DNA from: Acidimicrobiia bacterium | GTDB lineage: Bacteria; Acidobacteriota; Vicinamibacteria; Vicinamibacterales; UBA2999 | Assembly: GCA_016871255.1 (NCBI GenBank) | Contig: VFZH01000003.1 | Coordinates: forward strand, 2,427 to 66,426 | Reading direction: 5' to 3' | Length of the DNA stretch: 64,000 bases | Shown: positions 20,180 to 56,923 of the stretch, piece after piece | How the letters are laid out: every line of letters starts with the position of its first letter | Numbering within the stretch: position 1 is the stretch's first letter | The notes under the pieces: model-generated | What the model saw: only the letters and a program-made list of their open reading frames with translations | Told to the model about the DNA's origin: nothing | The model's database searches: none | Made by a program: the position numbers and the translations under genes

Positions 20180-20181
20180 TC

Positions 20182-20598: not shown

Positions 20599-20686
20599 CC
20601 TCGTGGTTGCTGGCCACTTTCTCCGTGTCCCCCGCGTCCGCTCGATCGGCGCCGCGCCGCAGCGCATCCACCCACGAGGTCACGAC

Positions 20687-20963: not shown

Positions 20964-21177
20964 GCATCGATCCTCGAAAACGATCACCGAAGGCGATGGG
21001 CGCGACGCTTCAGAGTGTTCTTCTGAGACTCGTGGACCTGCTCGCCGTGCTCGAAGAAATCGGCAGGAGATTCCGGGTGACCCCAGGTCTCGGCCGCGCC
21101 GGCTCACCGGCGCTCGACGAGACCGGGCAATGCTCGCCGGAGGGTTTCGGCCATAATGCCCCCGGAGGATGGCCCCG

Positions 21178-22428: not shown

Positions 22429-22578
22429 AGCCGGGTGAAGCGCGTGCACCCGCCAGCCGATCGGAGGGCATCGATTCGAGTCGACTTGATCCGGAATCCG
22501 TGACGCTTCAATACTGATTTCGCAGGGCGACGCGCTGGCTGCCCGCCATGACGGTTGGCGTCCAGTGGATCGGCCAGC

Positions 22579-23214
22579 TCAATCGAGCGTAACGTAGCGT
22601 TCGAGCCGCGCCACCTCCTTATCGTCGACGTACTTGCCTATCTCGCGGCGGAACTGCTGGATCGCCTTGTACGGCCGGTACTCCTTGAACTCACCGAGCA
22701 TTCGCTGCCCCATCCCGGGGATGCTCAGAATGTCCGCATCGCTCGCGGCGTTCAGGTTGATCGGTACGAAGACGTACTGCTCCAGTCTCGCCAGTTCCTT
22801 GTCATCGACGTACTTGCCGATCTCGCGGCGAAACTGCGCGAGCACTTTGTAGGGCCGATACTCCTTGAACTCATGGAGCAGGCGATCGCCGATTCCTGGA
22901 ATCAGGAGGATCTCGGCGTCGGACGCAGTATTCAGGTTGATCTGCACGAAGAGCCGGCGATACACCGTCATCCGCTGTTCTCGGCTGAGCGACTGCCCGA
23001 GCAGGGCATCGAAGTCAGTCATCGTCATGAACGGCCGGCGCTCGAGATTGCCCTTCGCCAGTGCCTGCGTGATACCTGGGACCGACAGCAGCTGCTTCTC
23101 GGATGCGGTATTCGCATCGAGCACGTCGCCACGCCGGCCGGCCTGCGCCTCCGTACCAGCGGGCGCCGCGAGGACGAGGACGATTGCAGCAGCAGACAGT
23201 CTCAGGGGATTCAT
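22579..23214 (-). CDS. Secreted ComEA-like protein with three helix-hairpin-helix units
   Basis: Signal peptide, then LDANTASEKQLLSVPGI, INLNTASDAEILLIPGIG and INLNAASDADILSIPGMG. The last two units form a 60-aa tandem duplication. Confidence 0.75.
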   Translation of the reverse strand: MNPLRLSAAAIVLVLAAPAGTEAQAGRRGDVLDANTASEKQLLSVPGITQALAKGNLERRPFMTMTDFDALLGQSLSREQRMTVYRRLFVQINLNTASDAEILLIPGIGDRLLHEFKEYRPYKVLAQFRREIGKYVDDKELARLEQYVFVPINLNAASDADILSIPGMGQRMLGEFKEYRPYKAIQQFRREIGKYVDDKEVARLERYVTLD

Positions 23215-23230
23215 ATCTCACTCCTCCGGA

Positions 23231-25630
23231 TCAGAAGCCGAGCCGCACGCCCGCCTGGACGAGCCGGGGACTGCCGGGCAGAATCCCCCGCGTGCGGTCC
23301 ACAACGAACAGCTCGTCAAACAGATTCTTCACGGCGACGAAAAACGTGGTGCGCGAGACGGTGTAGTTCACGGCCGCGTTCCATAGCGTGTAGCCAGCAA
23401 TCAGACCGCGTTGGCCGTCGGGCGTGGGAGCGATGGTGTTCAGGTCGTCGGTGAACTGATCGCTCGTGCGCACTGCCTCCAGCCGCACGTCGAGCGTGGA
23501 ATGTGCGTAACCCACACCGACGACCGCCATCTGTTCGGGCGCGTAGGGGAGCTGGTTCCCGCTCACGCTCACGCTGCCGAACCCGGAGATGTTGCTGAAC
23601 CGTCGGCCGGTGAACTCCGCGACCGGCAGGTACGTATACGCGAAGCGCAAGTACAGGTCGTGCACCGAACCAGTGATGGGAGCGCTGTCGATCTGTGCTC
23701 TCACTTCCACACCCTGGTGCAGCGTGGCGCCGCCATTGGTCAGCGTCGCCCCCACCCCGCCGGCTAGGCTCGCTGGGATAATCTGGTTCTCGTAATCCAT
23801 ACGAAAGAACGTCGCATCGACACTCACGCCGGGCCGCATCGTGCTTCGGAACCCTGCTTCATAGTTCCAGCTCAGCTCGGGATCCAGGTCAATGACACCG
23901 CCCGTGTTCGAGATGATGTCTTCCGTGCGGGGCGGCGCGAACCCGCGATGGACGCCCGCAAAGACGGTCACCTGCTCGCCCGTCGTGTGGGAGACGCCGA
24001 TACCCGGAATAACCCGAGTTAGGTTCGTGTCGCCCGTTACCCCAACGCCGGCGTTTGCCAGGCGGTTCGTGCGTTCGTAGCGAATGTGTTCAAGCCGCAC
24101 ACCGGGAGTTACCGTCCAGCCGCCGAACAGGAACCGGTTCTGCACGAACGTTGCGTAGGCGGCATTGCGCCGCACATTGCTCTCCACGAGCACGCCCGTC
24201 CGCGCTGCAGGCGTATCACCGTTCTGCTGGAGGCGATCCTGGTCCTCGAAATGTGCGCGGACACCGAAATCGGTCTCGCTGGCTACGCCCAATCCGCGAT
24301 GATGCACGGTGAACCGAGGCTCGACACCCCACGCGTAATACTGGCGCAAACGTCCTTCGTTGCCGCAGGTCGTGTTCAGGTTGTCCATCCCTGCGCAACG
24401 CGGATCACCGGCATCATTCGGGCGCTGAGCGGAGTTGCTCGACTGGCGCCACCAGTGCCGCCGGAAGGAGCTCCAGTACAGATTCGTCGTCATGGCGACG
24501 TTGCCGCTCACCGCGAGGGCATGCGTCGTCGACGCGCCGTACCGATCCGCGTAGAAGAAGTCGTTCCTGAACGGATTGCCGCGAGGATTGGCGAGGTACT
24601 CATCCTGCCGCAAGCCGGAATAGGTGACGTTCGAATCCTCGCTGTAATAGTTGCCGCGGAAGGTCAGCGTCTGGCTGGCACCGAAGCCCTGGACGACCTT
24701 GCCGTTGATATCATTCAGCTTGAAGTTCAGGTTCTCTCGGGACCCGTCGCCCTGCTTCCGCATGTAATCGACGAGAAACCCCGTACGACCGACCGTCGCG
24801 CCATACGAACCATGGCCGTTGAAATAGTCCTGGTTGCCGCCCATTAACGTCAGGAAGCCGGACGGTTGCGTCGGCGGCTTCGGGGTAAGGTAATTGACTG
24901 CCCCGCCGATCGTCTGAGGTCCATAAGCGATCTGGGCACCGCCCTTGAGCACCTCGAGGCGCTCGAAGCGGTCGATCGGCGGGTGATAGTAGGACGCATT
25001 GTCGCCGTAGGGCGCATACGTGAGGGGGATGCCGTCTTCGAGGAGCAGCACCTTGGTCGAGCGCGTGGGATTCAGGCCGCGAATCCCAATGTTCGGGCGT
25101 AGACCGAAGCCTTCCTCGTCTCGCACGTGCACGCCCGTCACTCTCCGCAGTGCTTCGTTGGTTGTCATGACGCGGCTCCTTTCGAGGGTTTCGCGCTCGA
25201 CAATCTCGACGGATCCTGGAAGCCGCCGCGCCCGCTCGTGGCTCCCAGCAATTTCACCCGCCATCACGACTACGTCTTCGATCAAGCCGCCGACTCGGAG
25301 CAGCAGCGGCACCCGGCGCGTTTCTCCTGGCTGCAGCACGAGCCGCTGCACCGCGACAGAAAACCCCTCCCGAGTCGCAGTGACCTCATAGTCACCAGGC
25401 GGCAACTCGGCGATCGTGAAGGTACCCTCCGCGTCGGTGGCGACGCGGCGCTCGAAACCGGCCGACGGCCGTCGGATTGCCACGGCGGCGTGCGGAATCA
25501 CTGCCCCACTTTGATCGAGAACTTGGCCGATCACGGATGCAGTGCGAACCTGTGCACCGGCGGGGATAACGGATACCGCGACGACGCAGGCGATGGCGAC
25601 AACATGAACGAGATGAGCGCGACAAGACAT
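23231..25630 (-). CDS. TonB-dependent receptor with N-terminal carboxypeptidase-regulatory-like domain
   Basis: CarbopepD_reg-like segment (GQVLDQSGAVIPHAAVAI...GDYEVTATREGF), plug (NEALRRVTGVHV...GIRGL), a barrel and a terminal Phe. Start at MSCRAH (25630). Confidence 0.9.
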   Translation of the reverse strand: MSCRAHLVHVVAIACVVAVSVIPAGAQVRTASVIGQVLDQSGAVIPHAAVAIRRPSAGFERRVATDAEGTFTIAELPPGDYEVTATREGFSVAVQRLVLQPGETRRVPLLLRVGGLIEDVVVMAGEIAGSHERARRLPGSVEIVERETLERSRVMTTNEALRRVTGVHVRDEEGFGLRPNIGIRGLNPTRSTKVLLLEDGIPLTYAPYGDNASYYHPPIDRFERLEVLKGGAQIAYGPQTIGGAVNYLTPKPPTQPSGFLTLMGGNQDYFNGHGSYGATVGRTGFLVDYMRKQGDGSRENLNFKLNDINGKVVQGFGASQTLTFRGNYYSEDSNVTYSGLRQDEYLANPRGNPFRNDFFYADRYGASTTHALAVSGNVAMTTNLYWSSFRRHWWRQSSNSAQRPNDAGDPRCAGMDNLNTTCGNEGRLRQYYAWGVEPRFTVHHRGLGVASETDFGVRAHFEDQDRLQQNGDTPAARTGVLVESNVRRNAAYATFVQNRFLFGGWTVTPGVRLEHIRYERTNRLANAGVGVTGDTNLTRVIPGIGVSHTTGEQVTVFAGVHRGFAPPRTEDIISNTGGVIDLDPELSWNYEAGFRSTMRPGVSVDATFFRMDYENQIIPASLAGGVGATLTNGGATLHQGVEVRAQIDSAPITGSVHDLYLRFAYTYLPVAEFTGRRFSNISGFGSVSVSGNQLPYAPEQMAVVGVGYAHSTLDVRLEAVRTSDQFTDDLNTIAPTPDGQRGLIAGYTLWNAAVNYTVSRTTFFVAVKNLFDELFVVDRTRGILPGSPRLVQAGVRLGF

Positions 25631-26149
25631 CGGATGACAGCTCCCAACTGAGCAAGTCCAGCGAGCCAACATGAGACTGAGTCTCCCTTGCAGCTTTGTG
25701 AGCTTATTTCCGACTGCATTGGTCTGTCAATACCATCCCGAGGGCCTTCGCCACCGCCCGCACGCCGTCGCCCGCCGCTTCACGCGCGCGCCAGTGCGCA
25801 CCGCTCGCTGGCGCAGCCCGACGGAATACCGTCCTTCGGCCCCCTCGCGATCCCGCAGCGCCCGACCGCCTGTCGTCGGAATCGTTGCACCGCGTCGTCC
25901 ATCGGTCTCCAACTCGCGCGGAGACTGTGACCGATACTCAGGCGGTTGCCCAGACGGGCCAGGGCCCTTACTCTTGAACGTTCAGCGAGTTAGCCTTTGC
26001 GGCTGGTCTCGTCGGTTCGCGACTGTTCGCCGACCTTTGCTGTTGTGTGCGATGGAATGTCGCGCGAAATGTCGCTCGCCGTGCGCTGCCTTCCAGCCCG
26101 ACGCGTCAACATGTCTACGAGGTCACCCGCAGCATGGATCGCGAAGACC

Positions 26150-26865
26150 AGCTTCTGACGCGCATCACGACGACACCGGAAATCTTCGGCGGAAGCCACG
26201 GCGGGGACCGTGAACGCCGGAGCGTTCGACGATCTCGCGGCGATCGGGACGTCTGCCGGGACCGGGATCCCTGGCTGCACGTGGACGGGGCATTAGGGGC
26301 GTGGGTCCGGATCGCGCCGGCGCTGGCGCCGCTGGTGCGGGGAATCGATCGCGCCGACTCGCTCGCCTTCGACTTTCACAAGTGGCTCCACGTGCCCTGC
26401 GACGCGGGCTGCGTGCTGGTGCGGGACCGGCATCGGCTCGAGCGTGCGTTCGCAACGCGCCCGTCGTACCTGACTCGCGCGACGCGCGGTCTGGCGGGCG
26501 GCGAGCCGTGGTTCGGCGACCTCGGCCCCGAGCGGTCGCGCGGCTTCCGTGCACTCCCGGTGTGATTCACCCTGCGCGAGCACGGTAGCCGGCGCCTGGG
26601 AGAGAAGATCCTCGGGAACTGCGAGCAGGCCCGTTACCTTGCCGGGCTCGTGCGCGCACACCCGCACCCCGAGCCCCGCTTAGGGCACTGGCCGGAATAC
26701 GGTTGCCATCTCGGCCGACGATGCATCCCGCCTCGCGGCGTTGCTCGTCGGTCACAGGCACCCGGCCTGCTCCCTCCTCGCGCCTGGCGAGCGGGCGCCT
26801 CGCCGCCCGGGAGTCGGCAACCTCATTCCGGCCAGGGCCCTTACGCTCGACACGGTCCTTCCATA
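26150..26865 (+). pseudogene. Decayed group II PLP-dependent decarboxylase
   Basis: Recognisable pieces lie in different frames: ATAGTVNAGAFDDLAAIG | DVCRDRDPWLHVDGALGAW...SLAFDFHKWLHVPCDAGCVLVRD...ERSRGFRALPV-TGA-FTLREHG...GEKILGNCEQARYLAGLV. The TGA sits where Trp is expected, and the N-terminal half is missing. Confidence 0.55.
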
Positions 26866-27031
26866 CTAGTCCTCTGGAAACGTGATCAGTCACACAACTC
26901 CCGGGCGGGGCATCCCGGCTCGCTGCGTTGCTCCTCCCTCACATATGGCCGATATTCTCGGTCGTCGCGCCTTGCGATCCGGGCGCCGCGCGCCGGGACT
27001 TGTGCAACTCATCACGTTTCCAGAGGACTAG
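26866..27031. mobile_element. MITE-like element (166 bp) bounded by 21-nt inverted arms CTAGTCCTCTGGAAACGTGAT
   Basis: Left arm 26866-26886 and right arm (reverse complement) 27011-27031. The same arms form the 56-bp palindrome at 44186-44241. The right-hand CTAG contains the TAG stop of the 27028 gene. Confidence 0.7.
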
Positions 27032-30009
27032 AAGTCCACCTGCGCACCGAACTTGAAGAGTCGGCCTCCAAGGATCGTGGTGGGCTGCAGCCACGACGCG
27101 CCGTACCGGGTGTTCAGGCCCAGGACCGTGCTGGCGTTGAACATGTTGTAGACGTCGAACATCCCCTGTATCCGTGCGCGCCCCATGCTGAACACCTTCG
27201 TCAGCCTGAGGTCGAACTGGGAGAGCCGCTCTTCGAAGATCGTGTTGGGCTCGAGGATGTTCAGAATCGCCACGCCGCTCGCAAGATTCCGACCGAGCGT
27301 CGGCGCGACCTGCGGACTGAGGACGACCAGGGTGGCGGCGAGGGGGATACCCGGGAGGTTCTGGTACGTGCCGCTGGCCTTGATGTCGAGCGGCAGCGGG
27401 TAGATGAACGCCACCTTGTACTGCGTCTGCCCCTCGAACGGCAGCTTGAAGTCGCAGAAACCCGGCAGTGATGCCTGCGGCGAGTCGATGGTGACGCAAC
27501 TATTGAACGTGGTCTGCCCCGTGGACATCCCTCCCTGGAGCAGCCCGCCGTCCCCGAACCGCGCGTTGAGGCTGACGTCGAACCCGTTGTACACCTCAGT
27601 CCGCTTGCCGTAGTTCTTGAACCGCGTGATGACGTTGTTGAGCTGCCCCAGCTTCGACGGGCGGACGTCGTAGAACCCGCAGAGCTGCCTGCCGCTCGCC
27701 GCGCCCAGCCGGGAATCCGTCGGCGAAGTGACGCAGAAGGGGTCGAAGTCCGCAGGCGTCACCGCGAGGTTGTCGCTGACCGAGAAGTTGCCGAACCAGG
27801 TGCGGAAGTACCCGGCGTTCAGCGCCAGGTTCGGCCGCAACTCGTGCTGGAGCGACGCGGACATCTGCCAGTTGTACCCGCGGTGCCCGAAGCCCTTCAG
27901 CATGTCGTCGTCGTAGCGGTTGATGGGGTTGAGCTGGCCAAGCGTGGCGGTGGAACTCTGCCCGCATTCGCCATTGGCCAGGTTGTTCAAGAGGTTGCAG
28001 TCGGGCACGTAGTTCCCGTTCGCGTCGTTCCACAGCCTGTTGCCGGAAATCGCGATCGACGCCGCGGGATGCGCCTGGTAGGTGAGGCCCCACGCGTTCG
28101 CGAGCTCGACATAGCGTCCCAGCGCCGTCTTCACCGCGGTCTTGCCATTGCCGAACAGGTCGTAGGCGGCGCCAAGGCGCGGTGAGATATCGGTCCACCT
28201 CGGCGCGCCCCGAACCTCTGGAAAATTCCTCGCCGGCACGAACGGCCCGGCGGGGATTTCCTTCTGAGGGTTGATCGCGTTGAGGTAGTCGAATCGCACA
28301 CCCAGGTCGAGGGTCAGTCTTCGAATCGTCCACTGGTCCTGTGCGAAGACGCCCATGTTCGGATTGAAACGGCTCCGCGCGACGAGCGGCGACGCCCACT
28401 GCGTGAGCGAGATCGGCACGCCGTTCCTGAACTGGTACTGCATCGGGCGGTCGTTCAGGTAGATGTTGTAGTGCTGCCATCCCTGGAGATACGTGAACCC
28501 GGCTTTCACGGCGTGCGATCCGGTTACGTAGTGAATGGCAAACCGGCTGTTGAACTGGTTCGTGAAGTTACGCTTCCCGTAGTCCGCCAGCCACAGCGAG
28601 ATCGTCCTGGCGTTGTACGCGGCGCCCGTCGTCAACTCGACAATGGCGATATCGCGCGGGCTCACCTCCGGCATCGGCTTGCCCCAGAAGTCGTTGAAGA
28701 GGAAGGTCGCCCCCGCGTCGATCAGGAACCGGTTGGTGGCCGGCCGGCTCCAGGTTGACTGTGAGAGCGAGATCGGCCAGTAGGTCGGCCGCCAGAAGGC
28801 CTCCGGAGCGGATGGCCCCGTCCCGAGGTTGCAGTTGCAGTTGTTCTGCAGGCTGGTGGAGAACGTGAACTTGTTCTTGGGGGTCGCCTGGAACGTCAGT
28901 CGGACGCTGTGGTCTTCGTTCTTGATGTCCTGAAAGGCCGGCCGGCTCAGATCCGCCTCGTAGCGCGAGACGCCGCTGTCAGGGTCACCGATGTACTTGC
29001 CCTGATTCTTGTTGTAGTAGCTTCCAGGCAGGAAGCTCTGTGTGCTCCACCAGCGGTGGGCCGTGTAGAACCAGAGCCGGTCCCGGCTGATGGGTCCCCC
29101 AAGGCCGCCACCGGCGTCAAAGAGCCTCTTGACGGACACCTGCGGTACCGCGCCACGCGCCTTCAGGGCCGCCGACGTGTTGTCCGCCTGCAAGGAGGAG
29201 CCGGCACCGTTGGCGGTGAGGACCGTCGAGAACGTGTTGCCTCCATCCTTGGGGACGACGTTGATGTGTGCGCCGCCGGCCTCGTTCTCCGCCCCCGCGC
29301 CGCGCGTTTCTACCGTCGTCTCCTGAACGAACACCTGGTTGATCATGATGTTCCGGACGTTCGCGGCGCCGCCGATGCCCGTGAACAGCATGCCGTCCTG
29401 CGTCAGCCGCTGGTCCGTGGACCGGCTGCCGTGGTAGCCGAACCCGCCGAGCCCGTCGCCCTTGTTGCCGCCCACGTCCTGCTGAGTGGCCAGGCCAACG
29501 GCCCCCAAAGTGAGCGCAACAAACCCCTGGAGCGTCTTGCCGCTGGGGATTCCATCGAGGATCTCCCGCGAGAGCACTCTCTGCTGCCGGGCGCTCTGAA
29601 TGTCCACCACGGGGCTCGCTCCCGTCACCGTCACCGTTTCCTCGAGCGATCCGACCTTCATGTCAGCGTTGGCCGCGGCCGTGAATCCCGAGGTCAGTTC
29701 GATGCCTTCGCGTTTGTAGCTGGCGAAGCCCGCCAGCGTGAAGGTCACGCTGTAGGTTCCCGGGCGGAGATCGACGATCTTGTAGTTGCCCTGCTCATCG
29801 GTCACCGCGATCCGGACCTTCTCAATCAGCGCGGGGCTCGCGGCTTCAACAGTGACACCGGGCAGCACGGCGCCTGTCGTGTCTCGTGCCACCCCAGCGA
29901 TGGCCCCCGTGGATGCAGTCTGAGCCCAAGCGGACGAAGGAAGCAGCGCCAGACCGAGCATGGCGGCACGGCCCAGTCGAGATGGCAGTCCCCAGCAACG
30001 ATGTGTCAT
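27028..30009 (-). CDS. Large TonB-dependent-receptor-like outer membrane protein with carboxypeptidase-regulatory-like domain
   Basis: 993 aa. Signal peptide, GVARDTTGAVLPGVTVEAASPALIEKVRIAVTDEQGNYKIVDLRPGTYSVTFTLAGF, a plug-like region, a long beta-rich body and a C-terminal VDF. Confidence 0.9.
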   Translation of the reverse strand: MTHRCWGLPSRLGRAAMLGLALLPSSAWAQTASTGAIAGVARDTTGAVLPGVTVEAASPALIEKVRIAVTDEQGNYKIVDLRPGTYSVTFTLAGFASYKREGIELTSGFTAAANADMKVGSLEETVTVTGASPVVDIQSARQQRVLSREILDGIPSGKTLQGFVALTLGAVGLATQQDVGGNKGDGLGGFGYHGSRSTDQRLTQDGMLFTGIGGAANVRNIMINQVFVQETTVETRGAGAENEAGGAHINVVPKDGGNTFSTVLTANGAGSSLQADNTSAALKARGAVPQVSVKRLFDAGGGLGGPISRDRLWFYTAHRWWSTQSFLPGSYYNKNQGKYIGDPDSGVSRYEADLSRPAFQDIKNEDHSVRLTFQATPKNKFTFSTSLQNNCNCNLGTGPSAPEAFWRPTYWPISLSQSTWSRPATNRFLIDAGATFLFNDFWGKPMPEVSPRDIAIVELTTGAAYNARTISLWLADYGKRNFTNQFNSRFAIHYVTGSHAVKAGFTYLQGWQHYNIYLNDRPMQYQFRNGVPISLTQWASPLVARSRFNPNMGVFAQDQWTIRRLTLDLGVRFDYLNAINPQKEIPAGPFVPARNFPEVRGAPRWTDISPRLGAAYDLFGNGKTAVKTALGRYVELANAWGLTYQAHPAASIAISGNRLWNDANGNYVPDCNLLNNLANGECGQSSTATLGQLNPINRYDDDMLKGFGHRGYNWQMSASLQHELRPNLALNAGYFRTWFGNFSVSDNLAVTPADFDPFCVTSPTDSRLGAASGRQLCGFYDVRPSKLGQLNNVITRFKNYGKRTEVYNGFDVSLNARFGDGGLLQGGMSTGQTTFNSCVTIDSPQASLPGFCDFKLPFEGQTQYKVAFIYPLPLDIKASGTYQNLPGIPLAATLVVLSPQVAPTLGRNLASGVAILNILEPNTIFEERLSQFDLRLTKVFSMGRARIQGMFDVYNMFNASTVLGLNTRYGASWLQPTTILGGRLFKFGAQVDF

Positions 30010-39512: not shown

Positions 39513-39623
39513 GGCGCACGATGGTACCGCCATCGGGTTGGTGCCGGGGCCGGATTCAGCCGGCCCAGACGGCCGGATGGGCCGCGTCCGTGTTACCCTC
39601 GTGCCGTGAGAGGAGGCAGCCAC

Positions 39624-40175
39624 ATGAGACGAGCCGCACGGGCGGCGTCGGCCATGCTCGCGGCCTTGGCTCTTTCGACCCCGGTATCCGGCCAGGACGC
39701 GGCACTGAAGGCGGGCGACATGGCGCCCGACTTCACGCTGCCGGCCAGCGACGGCCGGACCTACGCGCTCTCGGGACTCCGCGGCCGGCACGTCGTGCTG
39801 GCGTGGTTCCCGAAGGCGTTCACCGCGGGTTGAACGGCCGAGTGCATCTCGCTCCGTGAGAGCGGGCAGAAGATTCGCGGGTTCGACGTCGCGTATTTCA
39901 TGATCAGCACCGACACGCTGGAGGACAACACCGCGTTCGCGAAGAAGGAAAGCGCGGACTTCCCGATCCTGGCGGATCCGACGAAGACCACGGCCGCGAA
40001 GTACGGCGTGCTGCGGGAGTTCCCGAACATCGGGACGCTGCCCAACCGCTGGACGTTCTACATCGGGCCCGACGGGAGGATCCTGCAGATCGAGACGAAG
40101 GTGAACCCGAAGACGGCGGGCGAGGACCTGGTCTCCATCCTCACCGCCCTGAAGGTGCCGGCGGCGAAACCGTAG
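39624..40175 (+). CDS. Secreted AhpC/TSA (Bcp/PrxQ-like) peroxiredoxin with in-frame TGA at the peroxidatic Cys position (candidate selenoprotein; alternatively a pseudogene)
   Basis: AGGAGG SD, ATG at 39624 and a signal peptide. ...[10 protein letters not shown]...[13 protein letters not shown]-[TGA 39831-39833]-TAECISLRE...FMISTD...FPILADP...YGV...[12 protein letters not shown]. Both halves are in the same frame. Confidence 0.6.
39848..39866 (+). promoter_or_regulatory. Candidate bacterial SECIS-like hairpin
   Basis: Stem CUCGCUC (39848-39854) pairs with GAGCGGG (39860-39866), six Watson-Crick pairs plus one GU. Loop CGUGA. The stem begins 14 nt after the UGA. Confidence 0.4.
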
Positions 40176-40285
40176 ACGCGGTTCTCGGCCGGCAACGAAC
40201 AGAACAACGCCCGAGACGTTCCGTGCGCCTCGGGCGTTGCCGCGTACGGGGACCTGCCGGCAGGGGCCAGCCGTGGCTGGCCCGA

Positions 40286-41626
40286 TCAACGCGCCTGCGG
40301 CGTGCGCGTGCCGATCCGGTACAGCGCCGACACCGTCCGGATGAACAGGCTTCCGTCCGCGATGGCCGGTGTGGCCAGCGCCATTTCGCCGAGCGGGTTC
40401 GTGGCGACGACCTCGAACTCCGGTCCCGCCTGGATGACGTAGGTGTCGCCGTCTTCGCTCAGCGCGAACACCCGGCCGTTGTAGGCCCAGGGCGAGGCGG
40501 TGAAGCCGCTGGCTTCGGTTGCCACGCGGCGGCGCGGGTAGATCTCCTTGCCCGTCCGCGCATCGCGCGCCTCGAAGAACCCCCTGTCGTGCAGCGAGTA
40601 GTGGATGTCGCCGTACACGAGCGGCGTCGGGTTGTAGGGCGCCCCGGTCGGATCCGCCCAGGCGATGAACGCGTTCGCGCGCTCCCCGTCCTTCAGCGAG
40701 ATGTCCCCGCTGGCGCCCGGCCGGATGGCGTAGGTCGGCCGCGCCGCGTCGCCGATGTAGCCGGAGCTGATGTAGAGCAGGCCGTGACGCGTGAACGGGG
40801 TCGCGATGGTGATCGACGACATCCCGCGGAACTCCCACAGCAGGGTGCCCGACAGGTCGTACGAGCGCACGCGGTCCGATCCCGCCGTGACGATTTCCGT
40901 GCGCAGGTCGTGCTTCCAGACGAACGGCGTGGACCAGTTGGAGCCCTCGTCCCGGTTCACGCGCCACAGCGCCCTGCCCGTGTTCGCGTCGAAGGCAGCC
41001 AGGAACGACTGCTCTTCGTTGTCGTGCACGACGTAGACCCGGCCGTCGTGCAGCGCGGGCGAGGCTGCCGGGCCCCAGTCGTCGCGCGTCCTGAACGGCC
41101 CGATCTCGCGGGACCACAGGGGCGTGCCCCGCAGGTCGAAGGCGAACAGCCCCAGGTTGCCGAAGTAGAAGACGACACGTTCGCCGTCGGTGACCGCCGT
41201 CTCGGACGCGTAGCTGTTCTTGAGGTGCCTGGAAACACCGGGGGGGGCGCGGTGGACTTCGCGTTCCCAGCGTACCTTCCCCGTCGCCGCGTCGATGTCG
41301 TAGACCATCCAGCGGTGCGGCGCGGAGGGCGTGGCCCCGTTCCCGAGGTAGAGGCCCGGCTTCGGGGCTTCGGTCGGCTCGGGGCTGACGACCGACGTCA
41401 GGAAGACGTGGTCACCCCAGATGACCGGCGATCCCCAGCCGAGGCCAGGAATCTCCGTGCGCCAGATCACGTTCTCCGTGGCGTTCCACCGCTCGGGGAG
41501 CCGCGGGTCGTCCGTGGCGACGCCGGCCGACTCTCCGCGGAACAGCGGCCAGTTGTCCGCGGCCAGCGGCGCGCCAAGGGCCAGGGTCAGCAGGATGGTC
41601 GGGATGATGGAGGGGAGTCTTCTCAT
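40286..41626 (-). CDS. PQQ-like (BamB-type) beta-propeller repeat protein, secreted
   Basis: Signal peptide, then NWPLFRG...VIWRTEIPGLGWGSPVIWGDHVFLTS and repeated propeller blades. Paralog of 56924..58294. Confidence 0.85.
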   Translation of the reverse strand: MRRLPSIIPTILLTLALGAPLAADNWPLFRGESAGVATDDPRLPERWNATENVIWRTEIPGLGWGSPVIWGDHVFLTSVVSPEPTEAPKPGLYLGNGATPSAPHRWMVYDIDAATGKVRWEREVHRAPPGVSRHLKNSYASETAVTDGERVVFYFGNLGLFAFDLRGTPLWSREIGPFRTRDDWGPAASPALHDGRVYVVHDNEEQSFLAAFDANTGRALWRVNRDEGSNWSTPFVWKHDLRTEIVTAGSDRVRSYDLSGTLLWEFRGMSSITIATPFTRHGLLYISSGYIGDAARPTYAIRPGASGDISLKDGERANAFIAWADPTGAPYNPTPLVYGDIHYSLHDRGFFEARDARTGKEIYPRRRVATEASGFTASPWAYNGRVFALSEDGDTYVIQAGPEFEVVATNPLGEMALATPAIADGSLFIRTVSALYRIGTRTPQAR

Positions 41627-41632
41627 GGGGAC

Positions 41633-41638
41633 ATTCTA
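41633..41638 (-). promoter_or_regulatory. -10-like hexamer TAGAAT 6 nt upstream of the ATG (possible leaderless transcript)
   Basis: The minus strand reads TAGAAT-GTCCCC-ATG. Confidence 0.3.
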
Positions 41639-44663: not shown

Positions 44664-44778
44664 GCGTCCTCCCGTGCGTGGCTGGAAGGGCGAGCCCCTC
44701 GGAGCCGGTGGAGGCGGGATGTTAGCACGCGGGCGGTCCGTCGTTGACGGCCGGTGCGGGTGGCGGGCGAGGTGACCG

Positions 44779-47700
44779 GTGCAGCGGATTGGTGAGCGCG
44801 TGCTCTTCTCTCCAAGCGATCTCAACCACTTCCTGGAGTGCCGGCACCTGATCCGCCTGGAACTGGCGCGCGAGCCTGGTGCGCCGCGTGCGCCCCGTGG
44901 TGGGCACGCCGACTTGCTGGCGGAGAAAGGCGCCGAACATGAGCGCGCATGGCTCGCCCGGTTCCGGGACGAAGGCCGGCGCGTTGTCGCGATCGAACCG
45001 GCCGGGGCCGAACGCGACTGGCAGGCGGACGCCGCGCGCACGATCGCGGCGATGAAGGCCGGGGCAGACGTCATCTACCAGGGCGTCTTCGCGGCCGGCG
45101 ACTGGCACGGGATCAGCGACTTCCTGGTGCGCGTGGAGCGGCCGACGAGCCTCGGCGCGTGGGGCTACGAGGCGTGGGACACGAAGCTGGCGCGGCGCGC
45201 GAAGCCGTACTTCGTGCTGCAGCTCTGCTTCTACACGGCGGAGATCGCGCGCATCCAGGGCGCCGATCCCGGCGAGATGGTGATCGTCCTCGGCACCGGG
45301 GAGCACGAGCGGCTGCGCTACCGCGACTTCGCCGCGTACTGGCGCGCCGTGCGCGGCAGCTTCCTGGAGGCCGTGGGCGACGATGTGCGCACCTACCCGT
45401 ATCCCGTGGAGCACTGCAGCCTGTGCGATCACCAGGTCGCGTGCGCCCGCCGCCGGGAAGAGGACGACCATCTGAGCCTTGTGGCCGGCATCCGGCGCGA
45501 TCAGGTGGAACGCCTCAACGAAGCCGGCATCACGACGGTGTCCGCGCTCGCCGGCATCGACCTCGGTCGTCGCGTCGGTATCGGCGACGTCGTGCTGGCC
45601 CGCCTGCGCGAGCAGGCGGCGCTCCAGTCCGGCTTCCGCCGGACCGGCGCGCATCGCTACGAGCTGCTCCCGGTGGACGAGCGGACCGGGTTCCGCCTCC
45701 TTCCGCAGCCCTCGGCCGGTGATCTCTTCTTCGACATCGAGGGGGACCCCTGGTTCGAGCCGCGCCGCGGCCTCGAGTACCTGTTCGGCGTGATGACCGT
45801 GGATGACGGGTCGCCGAGGTTCGAGGGGCTGCGGGCGCTGACGCGCGACGGGGAGAAGCGCGGGTTCGAGCGCTTCGTGGACCTGGTCCACGAGCGCCTG
45901 GAGCGGTGGCCGGACCTGCACGTCTACCACTACGCCGCGTACGAGACGACCGCGCTCCGGAGGCTGATGAGCGAGCACCGGACGCGCGAAGAGGAGCTGG
46001 ATGCACTGCTGCGGCGCGAAGTGTTCGTGGACCTGTACCAGGTGGTTCGCCAATCCATGCGCATCTCGCACCCGAGCTACTCGATCAAGTCCGTCCGCAC
46101 CTTCTTCATGGACGACGCCGGCCGGGGCGCCGTGGCGACCGGGGGGGATTCCATCCTGGAGTTCGAGCGCTGGCGCCGCACGGGCGACGCCGCCATCCTG
46201 GACGCCATCGTCGACTACAACCGCGAGGACTGCCTGTCCACCGTGCGGCTGCGCGACTGGCTGCTCGATCGGAAGGCCGAGGCCGAGCAGGCGTCCGGCC
46301 GGTCGATCGCGTGGAAGAGGGTCGGCGAGTCGAAGGTCACCGAGGAGCGCGAAGCCGCCGATGCGAAGACGGCGGCGCGGGTCGAAGCGTTGCGGGCGAT
46401 CGGATCCGGAGGGGCGGTGCTGCTGGCCGACCTGCTGGACTACCACGCGCGCGAAGCGAAGCCGGAGTGGTGGGCGTACTTCGATCGGCGGAAGAAGTCG
46501 CTGGACGATCTGGTGGACGACACCGAGGCGATCGCGTGGCTGAGCGCCGCCGGTGACGAGGCGCCTGCACCGGAGAAGCAATCGATCGTGTATCCGCTCG
46601 ACTTCCCCGAGCAGGAGTACAAGCTGTCGGCCAGCAGGAAGAGTCAGCTCGAGGATCCGTTCAGGGGGGCGTCGGCGGGCACCGCGATCCGTATCGCCGG
46701 CGACCGCCGCCGGTTGCACCTGAAGCGGGGCCCCACGCTAGCCGGTGTGCCGCTGCCCGCTGCGGTCGCCAGGGGGCGCCCCATTCCTGACTTCGTCCAG
46801 AGGGACGCGCTCGCGCGCCTCGCGGAGGCGGTGCTCGCGGGCGGCGCGCCGTATCCGGCGGCACGAGCGCTCCTCGCGCGCCAGCGACCGCGGATTCGCG
46901 GGCGTCGTCCGGGCGCGCGGATTCAGACGATGGATCTCGACGAGCAGCGCGCGCTGGTCGCCGCGCTCGACGGGAGCTGCCTCTTCGTCCAGGGGCCGCC
47001 CGGCTCCGGCAAGACGTGGACCGGCGCGCGGCTCATCGTGTCGCTCATCAGCGCCGGGCAGCGGATCGGCGTGTCCGCGCTGAGCCACAAGGCGATCAAC
47101 AACCTGCTCGCCGAGGTCGAACGCGTGGCGCGCGACTCCGGCGTGCGCTTCACGGGCCTCAAGAAGTGCACGGATGACGACGACCGGTTCGACGGCGCCT
47201 GGATCGAGAACGTGATGACGAACGAGGCGTGCGATACCGCGGACGTGTCGCTCGTGGCCGGGACCTCGTGGCTCTTCGCGCGTCCCGCCATGGAAGGGCG
47301 GATCGACTGCCTGTTCGTGGACGAGGCCGGCCAGTTGTCGCTCGCCGACACCCTGGCGATGGCCACGTGTGCCGGCAACCTGGTCCTGCTCGGTGACCCG
47401 CAGCAGCTGCCGCAGATTCAGCAGGGCGTGCATCCCGGGGAGTCGGGGCGATCCGCGCTCGAGCACCTGCTCGGCGATGCCGAAACGGTCCCTGAAGACC
47501 GGGGCATCTTTCAGGAGCGCACCTACCGGATGCACCCGGACGTCTGCCGTTTCATCTCGGATCTGTCGTACGAGGGGCGCCTCCGGAGCGCCGACGGGTG
47601 CGAGCGCCAGCGGGTGTCCTCGCGGGGACTCTCGGGCGCCGGCTTGCGGTACGTCGCCGTAGAGCACCAGGGCAACGCGCAGGTCTCGCGTGAGGAAGCC

Positions 47701-48141
47701 GACGCGATCGGCCGCGAGGTGGCGCACCTGCTCGACGGCGGCACGTTCACCGACGTCGCGGGCCGCACGCGGCCGCTGACGCCGGGAGACATCCTGGTGG
47801 TGGCGCCGTACAACATCCAGGTCCGCTGCCTGCGCGAGCGGCTGCCCGTTGGCGTCGAGGCCGGCACCGTGGACCGGTTCCAGGGGCGGGAGGCGCCGGT
47901 GGTGTTCTACTCGATGGCCTCGTCGAGCGGCGAGGACGTGCCGCGCGGGCTGGAGTTCCTGTTCGGCCGCAACCGGCTGAACGTGGCGATCTCCCGCGCG
48001 CGGGCGCTGGCCGTGCTGGTCTGCAGCTCCCGGCTGCTCGAGACCCGTTGCCACAGCCTCGACCAGATGCGCCTGGTGAACCACATGTGCCGGCTGGCGG
48101 AAGACGCCGCCGTGGGCCGCACGTTGACTCCCCGGGCGTAA
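44779..48141 (+). CDS. Fusion protein: RecB/Cas4-like PD-(D/E)xK nuclease (TM0106-type) + RNase-H-like exonuclease domain + SF1 (Upf1-like) helicase
   Basis: N-terminus: FLECRH...GISDFLV...YEAWDTKLA...CSLCDHQVAC. Middle: FFDIEGDPWF, YHYAAYE, YNREDCLST. C-terminus: GPPGSGKT, VDEAGQ, GDPQQLPQI, YRMHP, VDRFQGRE, NVAISRAR. Confidence 0.85.
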   Translation: MQRIGERVLFSPSDLNHFLECRHLIRLELAREPGAPRAPRGGHADLLAEKGAEHERAWLARFRDEGRRVVAIEPAGAERDWQADAARTIAAMKAGADVIYQGVFAAGDWHGISDFLVRVERPTSLGAWGYEAWDTKLARRAKPYFVLQLCFYTAEIARIQGADPGEMVIVLGTGEHERLRYRDFAAYWRAVRGSFLEAVGDDVRTYPYPVEHCSLCDHQVACARRREEDDHLSLVAGIRRDQVERLNEAGITTVSALAGIDLGRRVGIGDVVLARLREQAALQSGFRRTGAHRYELLPVDERTGFRLLPQPSAGDLFFDIEGDPWFEPRRGLEYLFGVMTVDDGSPRFEGLRALTRDGEKRGFERFVDLVHERLERWPDLHVYHYAAYETTALRRLMSEHRTREEELDALLRREVFVDLYQVVRQSMRISHPSYSIKSVRTFFMDDAGRGAVATGGDSILEFERWRRTGDAAILDAIVDYNREDCLSTVRLRDWLLDRKAEAEQASGRSIAWKRVGESKVTEEREAADAKTAARVEALRAIGSGGAVLLADLLDYHAREAKPEWWAYFDRRKKSLDDLVDDTEAIAWLSAAGDEAPAPEKQSIVYPLDFPEQEYKLSASRKSQLEDPFRGASAGTAIRIAGDRRRLHLKRGPTLAGVPLPAAVARGRPIPDFVQRDALARLAEAVLAGGAPYPAARALLARQRPRIRGRRPGARIQTMDLDEQRALVAALDGSCLFVQGPPGSGKTWTGARLIVSLISAGQRIGVSALSHKAINNLLAEVERVARDSGVRFTGLKKCTDDDDRFDGAWIENVMTNEACDTADVSLVAGTSWLFARPAMEGRIDCLFVDEAGQLSLADTLAMATCAGNLVLLGDPQQLPQIQQGVHPGESGRSALEHLLGDAETVPEDRGIFQERTYRMHPDVCRFISDLSYEGRLRSADGCERQRVSSRGLSGAGLRYVAVEHQGNAQVSREEADAIGREVAHLLDGGTFTDVAGRTRPLTPGDILVVAPYNIQVRCLRERLPVGVEAGTVDRFQGREAPVVFYSMASSSGEDVPRGLEFLFGRNRLNVAISRARALAVLVCSSRLLETRCHSLDQMRLVNHMCRLAEDAAVGRTLTPRA

Positions 48142-48171: not shown

Positions 48172-48390
48172 ATGTCTTCCAAGGGGCAGATCGTGCTGCC
48201 GGCCGAGCTGCGCGACCGGGACCAGATCGAGAGCGGGCAGGAGTTCGACATCGAGCGGATCGAGCGGGGGGAGTACCGGCTGACGCGGCGGGCGCCGCGG
48301 CCGAATGAAGGGGTCGTCGACTGGCTGCTGTCGTGCCCCGACAAGGGGTACTTCGTGCCGATCGAGTCCGAGTCCACCGACACGCTGTGA
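48172..48390 (+). CDS. vapB: AbrB/SpoVT-type antitoxin (VapB-like)
   Basis: MSSKGQIVLPAELRDR... is a SpoVT-AbrB swapped-hairpin motif. The stop overlaps the VapC GTG start (GTGA). Confidence 0.7.
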   Translation: MSSKGQIVLPAELRDRDQIESGQEFDIERIERGEYRLTRRAPRPNEGVVDWLLSCPDKGYFVPIESESTDTL

Positions 48391-48803
48391 CCTACCTCGT
48401 CGACGCCAACGTGCTCAGCGAGGCCACGAAGGCCCAGCCGAGCGAGGCGTGTGTGGCCTGGCTGCGGCGGCACGAGCGGGAGCTCGCCGTCGACCCGGTC
48501 ATCCTCGGTGAGGTGCGCTACGGCATCCTGCTCCTGCCGAAAGGGAAGCGGCGCACGCGGCTGGAGCGGTGGTTCGACACCGGCGTCCAGCGCCTCCAGT
48601 GTGTGCCGTGGGATGCGGAGATCGGTCTGCGCTGGGCGGAGCTGCTGGCCACGCTGCGCCGGGCCGGGCGCGCGATGCCGATCAAGGACAGCCTGATTGC
48701 CGCAACTGCCTTGACGCACGGGCTGATCGTGGCGACGCGCAACCAGGCGGACTTCAAGGCATCCGGCGTGGCCATGGTGGATCCCTTCGCGCTCGAGTCC
48801 TGA
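48387..48803 (+). CDS. vapC: PIN-domain toxin (VapC family)
   Basis: YLVDANVLSE...DSLIAATALTHGLIVATRNQADF. Confidence 0.85.
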   Translation: MTYLVDANVLSEATKAQPSEACVAWLRRHERELAVDPVILGEVRYGILLLPKGKRRTRLERWFDTGVQRLQCVPWDAEIGLRWAELLATLRRAGRAMPIKDSLIAATALTHGLIVATRNQADFKASGVAMVDPFALES

Positions 48804-48848
48804 CCCCCGGTCGCCTCCCGGGTGCCGACCTGCGACAATACCGGGGTC

Positions 48849-50324
48849 ATGATGAAAAAACTCGGACGCGTGCTGAAGGTCGTGGGGCTGACGCTGGCCG
48901 GGGCGCTGGCCGTGTTCGCCGTGATGTACGTCCTGTTCGACCTGCGGGTGGTGATGACCGGCGGGGGCATGCCGACCCTGCGGTTCGTGATGACCAACGC
49001 CGAGCAGGCCGAGCTGGTGGCCGAACACCGGGCCCGGCAGCAGGCACGGGTGGACGGGGGCGGGCGCCCTGCGCCCACCGCTGTACCGGACGCCGTGCCG
49101 GCCGAGGCCGCTGGCGAGGTGGCGCCAGATGCGCAGGCCGGGACCGCGCCGGCGAGGGCGCCGGCCGCCTACTGGACCGACTTCTTCGGGCCGCTCCGCA
49201 ACGGCGAGTACCGCGAGATGCCGATCAACACCAGCTGGCCGGCCGGCGGGATGGCACCGCTCTGGAAGCAGCCGCTGGGCGCCGGCTACGCGTCGTTCGT
49301 GTTGGCGCGCGGGCGCGCGTTCACGATCGAGCAGCGGGGGCGGGAGGAAGTCGTCGCCGCGTACGACGTCGCCACCGGGCGCGAGCGGTGGACCCATGCG
49401 TGGGCCGCGCGGTTCACCGAGGCGCTGGGTGGTGACGGCCCGCGCGCCACGCCGACCTGGTTCGATGGAGTGGTCTACGCGCTCGGCGCCGAGGGCGAGC
49501 TGCGGGCGCTCGAGGACGCGACCGGGCAGGTCCGGTGGCGGACGAACATGCTCGAGGACGCCGGTGCGCCGAACATCCTCTGGGGCGTGTCGGCCTCTCC
49601 GCTCGTCGTCGACGACACCATCGTCGTCCTGCCCGGCGGTCCGAACGGCCAGTCTGTCGTGGCCTACGACCGCGGGACCGGGAAGAAGGCGTGGAGCGCG
49701 CTGAGCGATCGCGCGGCGTATTCGTCGCCGATGCTCGTGACGCTTGGCGGGGTGCGGCAGCTGCTGGTCCTGACCGCGGAGCGGCTGGCCGGGCTGACGC
49801 CCGACAGCGGACAGGTGCTCTGGGAGTATCCGTGGAGCACGTACAACGACATCACCGTGGCGCAGCCGCTGCTGCTGGGCGACGGGCGGATCTTCGTCTC
49901 GTCCAGCTACGGCACCGGCGCGGCCGTTGTCGAGGTGACCGGGTCCGGCGGATCGTTCTTCGTGCGCGAGGTCTGGAAGAACAACCGGATGAAGAACCGG
50001 TTCTCGAGCTCCGTGCTGCACGACGGGTACATCTACGGGCTCGACGAGAGCATCCTCGCGTGCGTCGATCCCGCGACCGGCGAGCTGCTGTGGAAGGGCG
50101 GGCGGTACGGCTACGGGCAGATCCTGCTGGCCGAGGGGCACCTGATCGTGCTGACCGAAGATGGCGACCTCGCGCTCGTCCGCGCGAATCCCGAGCGGCA
50201 CGAGGAGGTGGCGCGGTTTCCGGTGCTGGACGGCAAGACGTGGAACCACATGGCGATCGGCGGCGGATATCTCCTGGTCCGCAATCTGGCGGAGATGGCC
50301 GCGTTCGACCTGCGGCGGCAGTAG
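48849..50324 (+). CDS. Membrane-anchored PQQ-like (BamB-type) beta-propeller protein
   Basis: MMKKLGRVLKVVGLTLAGALAVFAVMYVLF anchor, then propeller blades (YASFVLARGRAFTIE, VYALGAEGELRALEDATGQVRW, YIYGLDESILACVDPATGELLW). Confidence 0.8.
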   Translation: MMKKLGRVLKVVGLTLAGALAVFAVMYVLFDLRVVMTGGGMPTLRFVMTNAEQAELVAEHRARQQARVDGGGRPAPTAVPDAVPAEAAGEVAPDAQAGTAPARAPAAYWTDFFGPLRNGEYREMPINTSWPAGGMAPLWKQPLGAGYASFVLARGRAFTIEQRGREEVVAAYDVATGRERWTHAWAARFTEALGGDGPRATPTWFDGVVYALGAEGELRALEDATGQVRWRTNMLEDAGAPNILWGVSASPLVVDDTIVVLPGGPNGQSVVAYDRGTGKKAWSALSDRAAYSSPMLVTLGGVRQLLVLTAERLAGLTPDSGQVLWEYPWSTYNDITVAQPLLLGDGRIFVSSSYGTGAAVVEVTGSGGSFFVREVWKNNRMKNRFSSSVLHDGYIYGLDESILACVDPATGELLWKGGRYGYGQILLAEGHLIVLTEDGDLALVRANPERHEEVARFPVLDGKTWNHMAIGGGYLLVRNLAEMAAFDLRRQ

Positions 50325-50672: not shown

Positions 50673-50735
50673 GGCGGGGCGTCCCGACCGTCCGGTTGTC
50701 GGGTACTCTTCGGGCAACATCACTGAGACCCTCGC

Positions 50736-51380
50736 GTGTCTGAAGACTCGTCAGCCTGGCACCCTGAAGTGCTGCCTGCGGCGTGGCCCCGGGCCGCACG
50801 CGATCTGGAGCGCCGCGGTGCGCTCAGCGGGTTCTACCTGGCTGGTGGCACGGGCCTCGCGCTCCAGCACGGACACCGGCGTTCGGTCGATCTGGATCTC
50901 TTCCGGGAGGCCGGGTTCGACAGCCGGACGATCGGCGATCGGCTCCGGGGGCAACGGGGCCTGGAGCGTGTGGCGCTCGAGCACGGCACGGTGGACCTGG
51001 TCCTGCACGGTGTGCAGGTCAGCTTCCTTCACTACCCGTACCCGCTGCTCTTCCCGCTGCGTTCGTACGGCGCGCTGTCGGTGGCCGATGCCCGTGACAT
51101 CGCCTGCATGAAGGTGCAGGCGATCGGCGATCGGGGCACCCGCCGCGACTTCGTCGACCTCTACGTTGCTGCCCGCGAGCACGGCCTCGACCAGATCCTG
51201 GACTGGTTCAGCCGGAAGTACGCCGCGGCGGCGTACAGCCGCGCGCACTACCTGAAGGCGATGACCTACTTCCGCGATGCTGAGCAGGATGCCGAGCCTG
51301 ACCTGCTCGCACCGATCGAGTGGCGCTCCGTGACCGGGTTCTTTCTCTCTCAGGTCCCACGCCTGGCGCATCTGTCCTGA
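50736..51380 (+). CDS. Nucleotidyltransferase AbiEii/AbiGii-type toxin family protein
   Basis: GTG start. YLAGGTGLALQHGHRRSVDLDLF...VADARDIACMKVQAIGDRGTRRDFVDLY pattern. Confidence 0.7.
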   Translation: MSEDSSAWHPEVLPAAWPRAARDLERRGALSGFYLAGGTGLALQHGHRRSVDLDLFREAGFDSRTIGDRLRGQRGLERVALEHGTVDLVLHGVQVSFLHYPYPLLFPLRSYGALSVADARDIACMKVQAIGDRGTRRDFVDLYVAAREHGLDQILDWFSRKYAAAAYSRAHYLKAMTYFRDAEQDAEPDLLAPIEWRSVTGFFLSQVPRLAHLS

Positions 51381-56455: not shown

Positions 56456-56793
56456 GAACAGGCATCACCTTCGGGCTCGTCGTCTGCGCCGCGGTGCTGG
56501 TCGAGCAGCTTCGGCTTCGGCAGCGCGGCCACCGCGCCGGCGGCCTCGCCCCGGGTCGGGATGGCTTCGGGTGGCAGGAACTTGACCGCGTCGCCGGGCT
56601 GCCAGGCCGGGTTGCCCCCGGGGCCTGACGTGGCGAGCCGGACCGACTTCTCGAACCCCGCGCCGGTCACCCCCTGGGCGACCACCGGCTCGCCGAACGG
56701 CGAGCGGCACGCCACCACCGTGGCCGACGCCCCGGCGGCGCCCACGAGCTTGAGCAGGGCCCGCCGACCGATCTTCCCGCGCTGTTCCGACAT
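56362..56793 (-). CDS. Small Tat-signal hypothetical protein
   Basis: GGAGG SD. MSEQRGKIGRRALLKLVGAAGASATVVA is a twin-arginine signal. The 3' end overlaps ampG by 94 nt (convergent). Confidence 0.45.
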   Translation of the reverse strand: MSEQRGKIGRRALLKLVGAAGASATVVACRSPFGEPVVAQGVTGAGFEKSVRLATSGPGGNPAWQPGDAVKFLPPEAIPTRGEAAGAVAALPKPKLLDQHRGADDEPEGDACSHCESSVTRISRSRAATTNESTSAAMPIAAE

Positions 56794-56840
56794 GAGAGGC
56801 CTCCTTGCAGCCAGGGCGGAAATGTGGGCCGCATCATACG

Positions 56841-56859
56841 CGCCGGGAGTAGAATCGGC
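56841..56859 (+). promoter_or_regulatory. 19-nt block CGCCGGGAGTAGAATCGGC (contains the -10-like TAGAAT), identical to 61999-62017
   Basis: Read directly from the sequence. Lies 65 nt upstream of the 56924 ATG. Confidence 0.35.
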
Positions 56860-56923
56860 GCCATTCATCGTCTGGCGCGCTGCAGTTTCCCGTCCCGGCT
56901 GTTTCCGCGAAGAGGGGTGGCAG

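Follow-up and report, generated by a model that had tools for sequence, protein, structure and literature searches.

The peroxiredoxin locus

The window, which is the whole stretch of 64,000 nucleotides of DNA that was analysed, carries on its plus strand a reading frame for a peroxiredoxin (Prx) that is interrupted once by an in-frame TGA. The features of the locus are listed below in window coordinates.

39610..39616, plus strand: Shine-Dalgarno sequence GAGGAGG, 7 nt before the ATG, read off the sequence
39624..40175, plus strand: proposed full selenoprotein coding sequence of 183 codons including Sec70, for an AhpC/TSA (BCP/PrxQ-like) peroxiredoxin
39624..39692, plus strand: putative Sec-type signal peptide, residues 1-23, followed by QD, proposed from the N-terminal sequence
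39831..39833, plus strand: UGA codon 70, the candidate selenocysteine (Sec) at the peroxidatic position in P63-K-A-F-T67-A-G-U70, placed by alignment to homologues
39843..39845, plus strand: Cys74 codon TGC, candidate resolving Cys (U-x3-C), invariant in alignment A1 and fixed in the TGA-bearing set by the search pattern itself
39848..39866, plus strand: bacterial SECIS hairpin with a 7-bp stem CUCGCUC/GAGCGGG and the apical loop CGUGA (39855-39859)
40047..40049, plus strand: Arg142 codon, active-site Arg (NRWTFYI), invariant in alignment A1
40205..40239, no strand assigned: terminator-like 14-nt inverted repeat between the convergent Prx and PQQ_2 genes

Translation of 39624-40175 (+) gives a single frame whose sole internal stop is the TGA at 39831-39833. 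The frame ends with a TAG at 40173-40175 (+) and the C-terminus of the protein reads ...AAKP. This confirms the original prediction, made from the letters of the DNA, that two neighbouring open reading frames (ORFs) are one frame split by a single TGA. The third codon positions downstream of this TGA have a GC content (GC3) of 0.95. The same DNA is present in an independent JGI assembly (3300020193, Ga0194131_10033441; locus L243, positions 3566-4093), where the Prx is annotated as two genes of 91 and 61 residues. Since the second assembly also has the split Prx, the TGA did not arise from an error in assembling the window, and the gene is mis-annotated. The inverted repeat past the stop codon has a T-run on the minus strand only, and its role for the plus-strand Prx gene is uncertain.

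Genomic surroundings

The gene that converges on the Prx gene belongs to a set of four PQQ genes in the window, at 40289-41635 (-), 48804-50321 (+), 56456-58291 (+), and 59261-61471 (+). The set comprises three PQQ_2 paralogues (BamB-like beta-propellers), at least two of them with a signal-peptide-like N-terminus, and a full PQQ-dependent dehydrogenase. A PIN-domain (VapC-like) ORF at 48309-48800 (+) and an AbiEii toxin-like ORF at 50727-51377 (+) lie close together and near a protein with RNase_H_2 and AAA_11/AAA_12 helicase domains at 44776-48138 (+). This group may be a defence or toxin-antitoxin cluster.

The part of the window from 16000 to 30000 has a GC content of 0.60-0.66, against about 0.70 elsewhere. 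It contains an IS1595-family transposase (17983-19047), a tRNA-Ser(GGA) gene (19566-19655), a PIN-domain ORF (20167-20595), and TonB-dependent receptor genes, and may have entered as an island at the tRNA. Another in-frame TGA is found at 25978-26565 (+), in a fragment of a PLP-dependent decarboxylase that covers only positions 222-305 of the 375 of the profile. Its TGA reads 'RALPV*F' and its flanks are degraded. Homologues presumably have Trp at this position. In contrast to the Prx gene with its TGA, the decarboxylase fragment is a true pseudogene.

Protein family and active site

With Cys put in place of the stop, the Prx matches the Pfam family AhpC-TSA at 8.5e-29 over residues 31-154, a span that includes the TGA, and the family Redoxin at 7.9e-21. 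The nearest solved structures are of the Bcp type (2ywn/4g2e, 5.9e-19; also 5epf, 3drn, and AhpE 1xvw). These matches uphold the original reading of the readthrough product as a full-length AhpC/TSA protein of the Bcp/PrxQ-like kind. The same reading had placed the TGA at the peroxidatic Cys of an FTAG-U-TAEC motif in which the second Cys is retained, and alignment with homologues and with 2ywn bears this out, as the TGA column aligns to the peroxidatic Cys (Cp) of the Bcp-type structures, that of 2ywn included. The sequence T-A-G-U-T-A-E-C is a TxxU motif with a Cys at +4. The Prx active-site motif PxxxTxxU...R is complete (P63, T67, U70, and R142) and C74 is also kept. The role of Arg142 follows from what is established about the Prx active site.

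The Prx has an N-terminal extension in which positive charge is followed by a hydrophobic stretch. Such an extension is present in 21 of 21 aligned homologues, most of which end it with A-x-A-Q, and is absent from the cytoplasmic Bcp structures, whose alignments start at mature residue 5-6. Residues 1-23 are therefore likely to be a Sec-type signal peptide, and the Prx probably acts outside the cytoplasm. The secreted character given to the protein in the original prediction draws on this shape of the N-terminus.

Conservation of the TGA in homologues and orthologues

A protein search returned 2418 homologues, and the residue at the TGA column was tallied in the best 120 full-length matches of these 2418. 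The column holds Cys in 108 of the 120, the Sec/Cys pairing of a Sec-containing Prx, and Trp in 8. For two of the proteins with Trp the DNA was inspected, and it has a TGA at the W, translated with the wrong genetic code (code 4 or 25). The proteins with W for Sec are P0001, P0002, P0004, P0005, P0006, P0010, P0103, and P0108 (L001:981-1553). The L001/P0005 translation also passes a true TGA stop (KKQ*FLFWAPV) and so acquires the spurious tail 'WFLFWAPV'.

DNA was then scanned for the motif W-[FY]-P-x-A-[FY]-x-x-G-TGA-T-x-[EQ]-C, which has one match in the window and none in 100 shuffles. Matches were found in at least 120 species-representative genome stretches and at least 120 metagenome contigs, and none of the 242 fetched loci lacks the in-frame TGA. 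When the window was compared with the fetched loci by synteny and nucleotide sequence, the Prx gene was the sole match. By the taxa in the record titles, the carriers among the 120 listed genome loci are Acidobacteriota (69, many of them Vicinamibacterales), Planctomycetota (23), Verrucomicrobiota (11), Pseudomonadota (10), Acidimicrobiia (2), and others (5); Gammaproteobacteria are also among the genomes that carry the Prx TGA.

Decay of the half of the gene downstream of the TGA in orthologues had been named beforehand as an outcome that would speak against a selenoprotein. No such decay is seen. The 222 loci that are readable to a stop have a median of 109 codons downstream, all but a few of them between 102 and 131, and the elements SxD, ADFP, and RWTFYI are conserved there. 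A test for purifying selection past the TGA in relatives had also been suggested, and constraint there is no weaker than upstream. The median pairwise Nei-Gojobori dN/dS is 0.39 downstream, no higher than the 0.58 of the 39 codons upstream, while the window compared with its orthologues gives 0.52 downstream and 0.54 upstream; these NG86 values are not very low in absolute terms and are inflated, GC3 codon bias probably depressing dS, and they serve only for comparison of the two parts. Because the downstream value does not exceed the upstream one, the 3' half of the Prx gene is not relaxed.

The SECIS hairpin

Bacterial selenocysteine decoding uses a SECIS element, a hairpin located directly 3' of the UGA. 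The original prediction described a 7-bp hairpin at 39848-39866 with the loop CGUGA, 14 nt after the UGA, and folding recovers it with 7 pairs, one of them G-U, and a minimum free energy (MFE) of -9.7 kcal/mol. The published bSECIS model calls for a loop of 3-9 nt, an upper stem of 4-16 bp, a distance from UGA to loop of 16-37 nt, and an MFE of -7.5 kcal/mol or lower, with a G within the first two loop positions that is usually followed by G or U (PMC13188914). The window element agrees with the model in size (5-nt loop, 7-bp stem), in loop sequence (C-G-U-G-A, with G then U at loop positions 2-3), in spacing (21 nt from UGA to loop, 39834-39854), and in energy, the median of which is -11.0 kcal/mol over 236 TGA-bearing orthologue segments. 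Folding energy alone does not set the hairpin apart from shuffled sequence. For a 30-nt piece the z-score is -0.9 and 34 of 200 shuffles of this 69% GC sequence fold as well, and for 39825-39900 the z-score is only -1.2. The hairpin alone is thus within chance for DNA of 69% GC, and its significance comes only from the comparison of orthologues.

This comparison used an in-register gapless stack of the SECIS region, which is coding, with 233 distinct sequences (232 orthologues and the window). RNAalifold returned no structure on the ungapped stack, and pairs were counted directly instead. All 7 pairs form in 181 of the sequences and six form in 24 more; the window has all 7 pairs plus the consensus loop. 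The changes at four of the pairs are given below, with nucleotides counted from the U of the UGA.

Pair 17-35: GC 152, CG 35, AU 14
Pair 20-32: GC 197, AU 13, GU 10
Pair 21-31: CG 191, UA 23
Pair 23-29: CG 199, GC 15

Two-sided (compensatory) changes occur at 5 of the 7 SECIS pairs. The loop is CGUGA in 143 and CGUGC in 48 of the 233 distinct sequences. Of 231 distinct sequences that start at the UGA, 230 retain the G of the loop and 201 the U that follows it.

Conservation of the hairpin in TGA-containing homologues was the other test set in advance, and it came out in favour of the element, with covariation. Alignment A2 consists of 118 sequences (117 genome loci and the window). On this alignment 91.6% of pairing cells are paired against 82.7% in shuffles, and two-sided changes number 58 against 8.5. 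Covariation scores 0.265, compared with 0.108 in shuffles. Neither the number of two-sided changes nor the score is reached by any of 500 shuffles. When the partners are slid by 1-3 columns the signal is lost and the scores fall to 0.03-0.12. Only codons +6 to +10 past the UGA have a third-position entropy as low as about 0.6 bit, with flanks at 1.3-1.9 bits. These frozen third positions are a constraint at the nucleotide level, beyond the protein code.

The peptide encoded by the SECIS region differs between the two forms of the protein. It reads LRES or LRAS in all 8 TGA forms among the best 120 matches, and R-E/A-S predominates among the 232 TGA-bearing loci, whereas 80 of 108 Cys forms have SLAEN or SLAAN at the same site. 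The SECIS explains this difference. As a control, hairpins were also sought in Cys forms, for which only seven distinct sequences were available. A hairpin at the SECIS position, in codons +5 to +12 after the Cys codon, is present in L244, L245, L248, L249, and L247. Several of these have a stem of 7-10 bp and an 8-nt loop without G-U. The CGUGA loop is retained in L247, a TGT Cys form that reads RALRES. The Cys-form hairpins may be fossil SECIS elements or precursors. Because several Cys forms share the hairpin site, a hairpin as such is not diagnostic; it is the G-U-containing CGUGA loop that tracks the TGA.

Selenocysteine machinery and the genetic code

The Sec-decoding genes were searched for in the window. 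No tRNA-Sec was found in the 64 kb at Rfam gathering thresholds or with ARAGORN, and the only hit of these scans is the gene for tRNA-Ser(GGA). Pfam searches of 48 ORFs found no selA, selB, or selD in the window, a 64-kb sample that is uninformative on the whole genome. ARAGORN likewise found no tRNA-Sec near the Prx in the 120 listed genome loci.

Two related loci carry further components of the selenocysteine trait. The first, L099 from Acidobacteria sp. RBC058, encodes a Prx that is about 70% identical to that of the window. Its 8-kb locus (L099:516-5512) also contains selB (516-2459), selD (2477-3652), and a SelW-like CxxU gene (5318-5512). The SelB has GTP_EFTU, SelB beta-barrel, and SelB-wing 2 and 3 domains. 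The SelD has AIRS domains and an in-frame TGA of its own at the catalytic position, and it is 41% identical to what we take to be the sequence of E. coli SelD. The whole arrangement looks like a small selenium island. The second is a 1.8-kb metagenome contig with three selenoprotein genes side by side (L002:3-1674).

L002, 3-620, minus strand: Prx-like UxxC protein with 'SADW*PYC'
L002, 826-1398, plus strand: TxxU Prx
L002, 1438-1674, minus strand: SelW/Rdx-like CxxU protein

These selenoprotein, selB, and selD neighbours indicate that carriers of the Prx gene decode Sec.

Within the window, TGA serves as a stop more often than any other codon and ends 22 of 36 high-GC3 ORFs. Only three TGAs in the window are flanked on either side by a GC3 of 0.85 or more, and only that at 39831 lies inside a single protein domain. 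The other two, at 48801 (+) and 2592 (-), were considered as recoding sites and rejected as ordinary gene junctions. Three pairs of ORFs joined in one frame by a TGA were examined as candidate selenoproteins and are ordinary gene junctions, namely acyl-carrier-like/hexapeptide transferase, PIN/PQQ_2, and MFS transporter/PQQ_2. Since TGA is the commonest stop and that of the Prx is the only one within a coding domain, a reassigned code is excluded.

Alternative explanations

Three other explanations of the in-frame TGA were weighed. It is very unlikely that the gene is a pseudogene, dead in this genome, whose TGA arose by mutation of a Cys codon (TGC or TGT). The 91- and 61-residue fragments given by gene callers in the second assembly and the lack of Sec machinery within the 64-kb window speak for a dead gene, but the TGA is common to all 242 fetched orthologous loci from several phyla, the downstream frame is intact with its high GC3 and conserved R142, and the hairpin of the window retains every pair and the consensus loop. 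The window also holds a true decayed gene for comparison. The decarboxylase fragment looks different, with its TGA at a presumed Trp position and with degraded flanks. That the TGA has been reassigned to sense (Trp or Gly; genetic code 4 or 25) is hardly conceivable. The eight database proteins with W at the TGA column, which would seem to suggest it, are products of gene calling, as the L001 translation that also reads past a true TGA stop makes plain. The homologues have Cys and not Trp at this column, and TGA is in regular use as a stop in the window, with the Prx TGA the only one inside a domain.

The remaining alternative accepts that the family is a true selenoprotein family and holds that this genome has lost the Sec machinery, which would leave the gene as a recent relic or as one that is inefficiently read through with Cys or Trp at the UGA. 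Bacteria have often lost the Sec trait and their selenoproteins, with 38 loss events reported (PMC1794560), and 64 kb is too short to check the decoding genes. We nevertheless regard recent loss as improbable, as no relaxation is seen: the hairpin is a perfect SECIS, the gene has neither frameshifts nor further stops, and the dN/dS of the window against its orthologues is matched on the two sides of the TGA. The locus is, very probably, one intact gene for a Sec-containing BCP/PrxQ-like peroxiredoxin that would be decoded by SelB, is probably exported, and would use U70 together with C74 in its chemistry. The original prediction had likewise preferred a Sec-containing peroxiredoxin to a dead gene, and it is supported by the TGA in 242 of 242 loci, the intact downstream frames, and the covarying hairpin.

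Proposed decoding and catalytic cycle

At the level of sequence, comparison of the orthologues shows UGA-70 to be a conserved sense position that is followed by a conserved and covarying SECIS. The steps that we propose from there on are modelled on known systems. In established bacterial Sec decoding, SelB acts with Sec-tRNA(Sec). Here the hairpin 14 nt past UGA-70 would be bound by SelB with GTP and Sec-tRNA(Sec), and SelB would deliver Sec to the ribosome in place of termination. We infer that SelB decoding works in this way at UGA-70. The 183-residue precursor with its signal peptide would then probably be exported to the periplasm or the cell envelope. There, the selenolate of U70 in the PxxxTxxU...R site (P63, T67, R142) would reduce peroxide and be converted to a selenenic acid. 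C74 would probably resolve the selenenic acid, giving an intramolecular U70-C74 selenenylsulfide, an intermediate suggested by Prx chemistry. A thiol-disulfide oxidoreductase might then reduce the selenenylsulfide. A search for a conserved neighbour that could serve as the reductant found no cluster of non-Prx ORFs in more than 19 of 240 loci (flanks of about 3.5 kb).

Comparison with known systems

Peroxiredoxins with a TxxU motif (PF00578/COG1225) are a listed bacterial selenoprotein family (PMC1088965, PMC2398784, PMC13188914) that has been on record since the mid-2000s. The early genomes contained 12 Sec-Prx, and Acidobacteria were already among the holders of selenoproteins (PMC1794560). 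Environmental surveys counted 43 Sec-Prx in the Sargasso Sea and 253 in the GOS data (PMC1088965, PMC2398784), and ten GOS reads had Prx/SelW neighbour pairs (PMC2398784). A 2026 review describes the family by its PxxxTxxU motif and cites the verified enzyme of Eubacterium acidaminophilum (PMC13188914). Compared by domain, motif, Cys homologues, and SECIS position, the window Prx has no essential difference from the TxxU Prx family of Kryukov, Zhang, and Gladyshev. The two share the Pfam domain, Sec at the peroxidatic position, widespread Cys homologues, and a SECIS just past the UGA. A SelW-like neighbour, as in some members of the family, also occurs in the related loci L002, L099, L176, L205, and L214. 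The surveys covered mostly marine and early genomes, whereas soil and freshwater Acidobacteriota, together with Planctomycetota and Verrucomicrobiota, make up most of the carriers found here. The Prx-like thiol:disulfide oxidoreductase selenoproteins (UxxC) were considered as a second family and ruled out, the motif of the window Prx being TxxU with Cys at +4; a true member of that family adjoins the Prx in L002 (SADW*PYC).

PrxU of E. acidaminophilum is an experimentally verified Sec-peroxiredoxin, according to the account in the review (Sohling 2001, cited in PMC13188914). It has Sec for the peroxidatic Cys, as does the window Prx, but is of a different subfamily. The window Prx scores 42.8 bits against the PrxU profile (NCBIfam NF040737), well below its cut-off of 270, and has 183 residues against the 233 positions of the profile. 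We take PrxU to be without a signal peptide.

The best sequence match is to Bcp/PrxQ (E. coli Bcp; 2ywn/4g2e, 5epf, 3drn), with which the window Prx shares the fold, the P/T/Cp/R site, and a second Cys soon after Cp on helix alpha2. It scores 78.6 bits against the Bcp equivalog NF006960, whose cut-off is 140, and is thus BCP-like and not an equivalog. It differs from Bcp/PrxQ in having Sec for Cys and in its putative N-terminal signal peptide. The second Cys of 2ywn lies 5 residues after Cp (C-T-K-E-M-C), whereas that of the window Prx lies 4 after U (U-T-A-E-C). E. coli Bcp presumably also has its second Cys 5 after Cp. The SECIS resembles that of E. coli fdhF, the bacterial prototype to which SelB binds, in being a coding-region hairpin that directly follows the UGA on its 3' side and has G-U in its small apical loop. 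The two are not similar in sequence, and the 7-bp stem of the window has no bulged U. The G-U of the fdhF loop is, we assume, at nt 23-24, about 3 nt nearer the UGA than the 26-27 found here.

A more far-reaching interpretation, which we put forward as a tentative and rather doubtful one, is that these proteins form a distinct subfamily of exported selenoperoxiredoxins, whose cycle passes through a U-x3-C selenenylsulfide and which are common in aerobic soil and freshwater Acidobacteriota, Planctomycetota, and Verrucomicrobiota. The nearly invariant SECIS would then fix the peptide S-L-R-E-S-G and appear to be mobile between phyla with the gene, and the Cys-form hairpins would be fossils or precursors. 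If true, the subfamily would offer a clean natural system for the study of Sec-to-Cys and Cys-to-Sec conversion.

The practical value of the results lies in annotation. The gene is split in a public assembly, and its orthologues are split or given Trp at the catalytic residue. The correct call would add one selenoprotein to the inventory of the organism and imply the Sec-decoding trait. The results also show how widely this Sec-peroxiredoxin occurs, in Acidobacteriota of soil and freshwater as well as in Planctomycetota and Verrucomicrobiota, and they provide a large set of SECIS sequences, more than 230, that are in register and show covariation. The current understanding of selenoproteins is unchanged by them. 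The window Prx is a BCP-like, signal-peptide-bearing branch of the known TxxU kind of Prx, and the kind of protein is not new.
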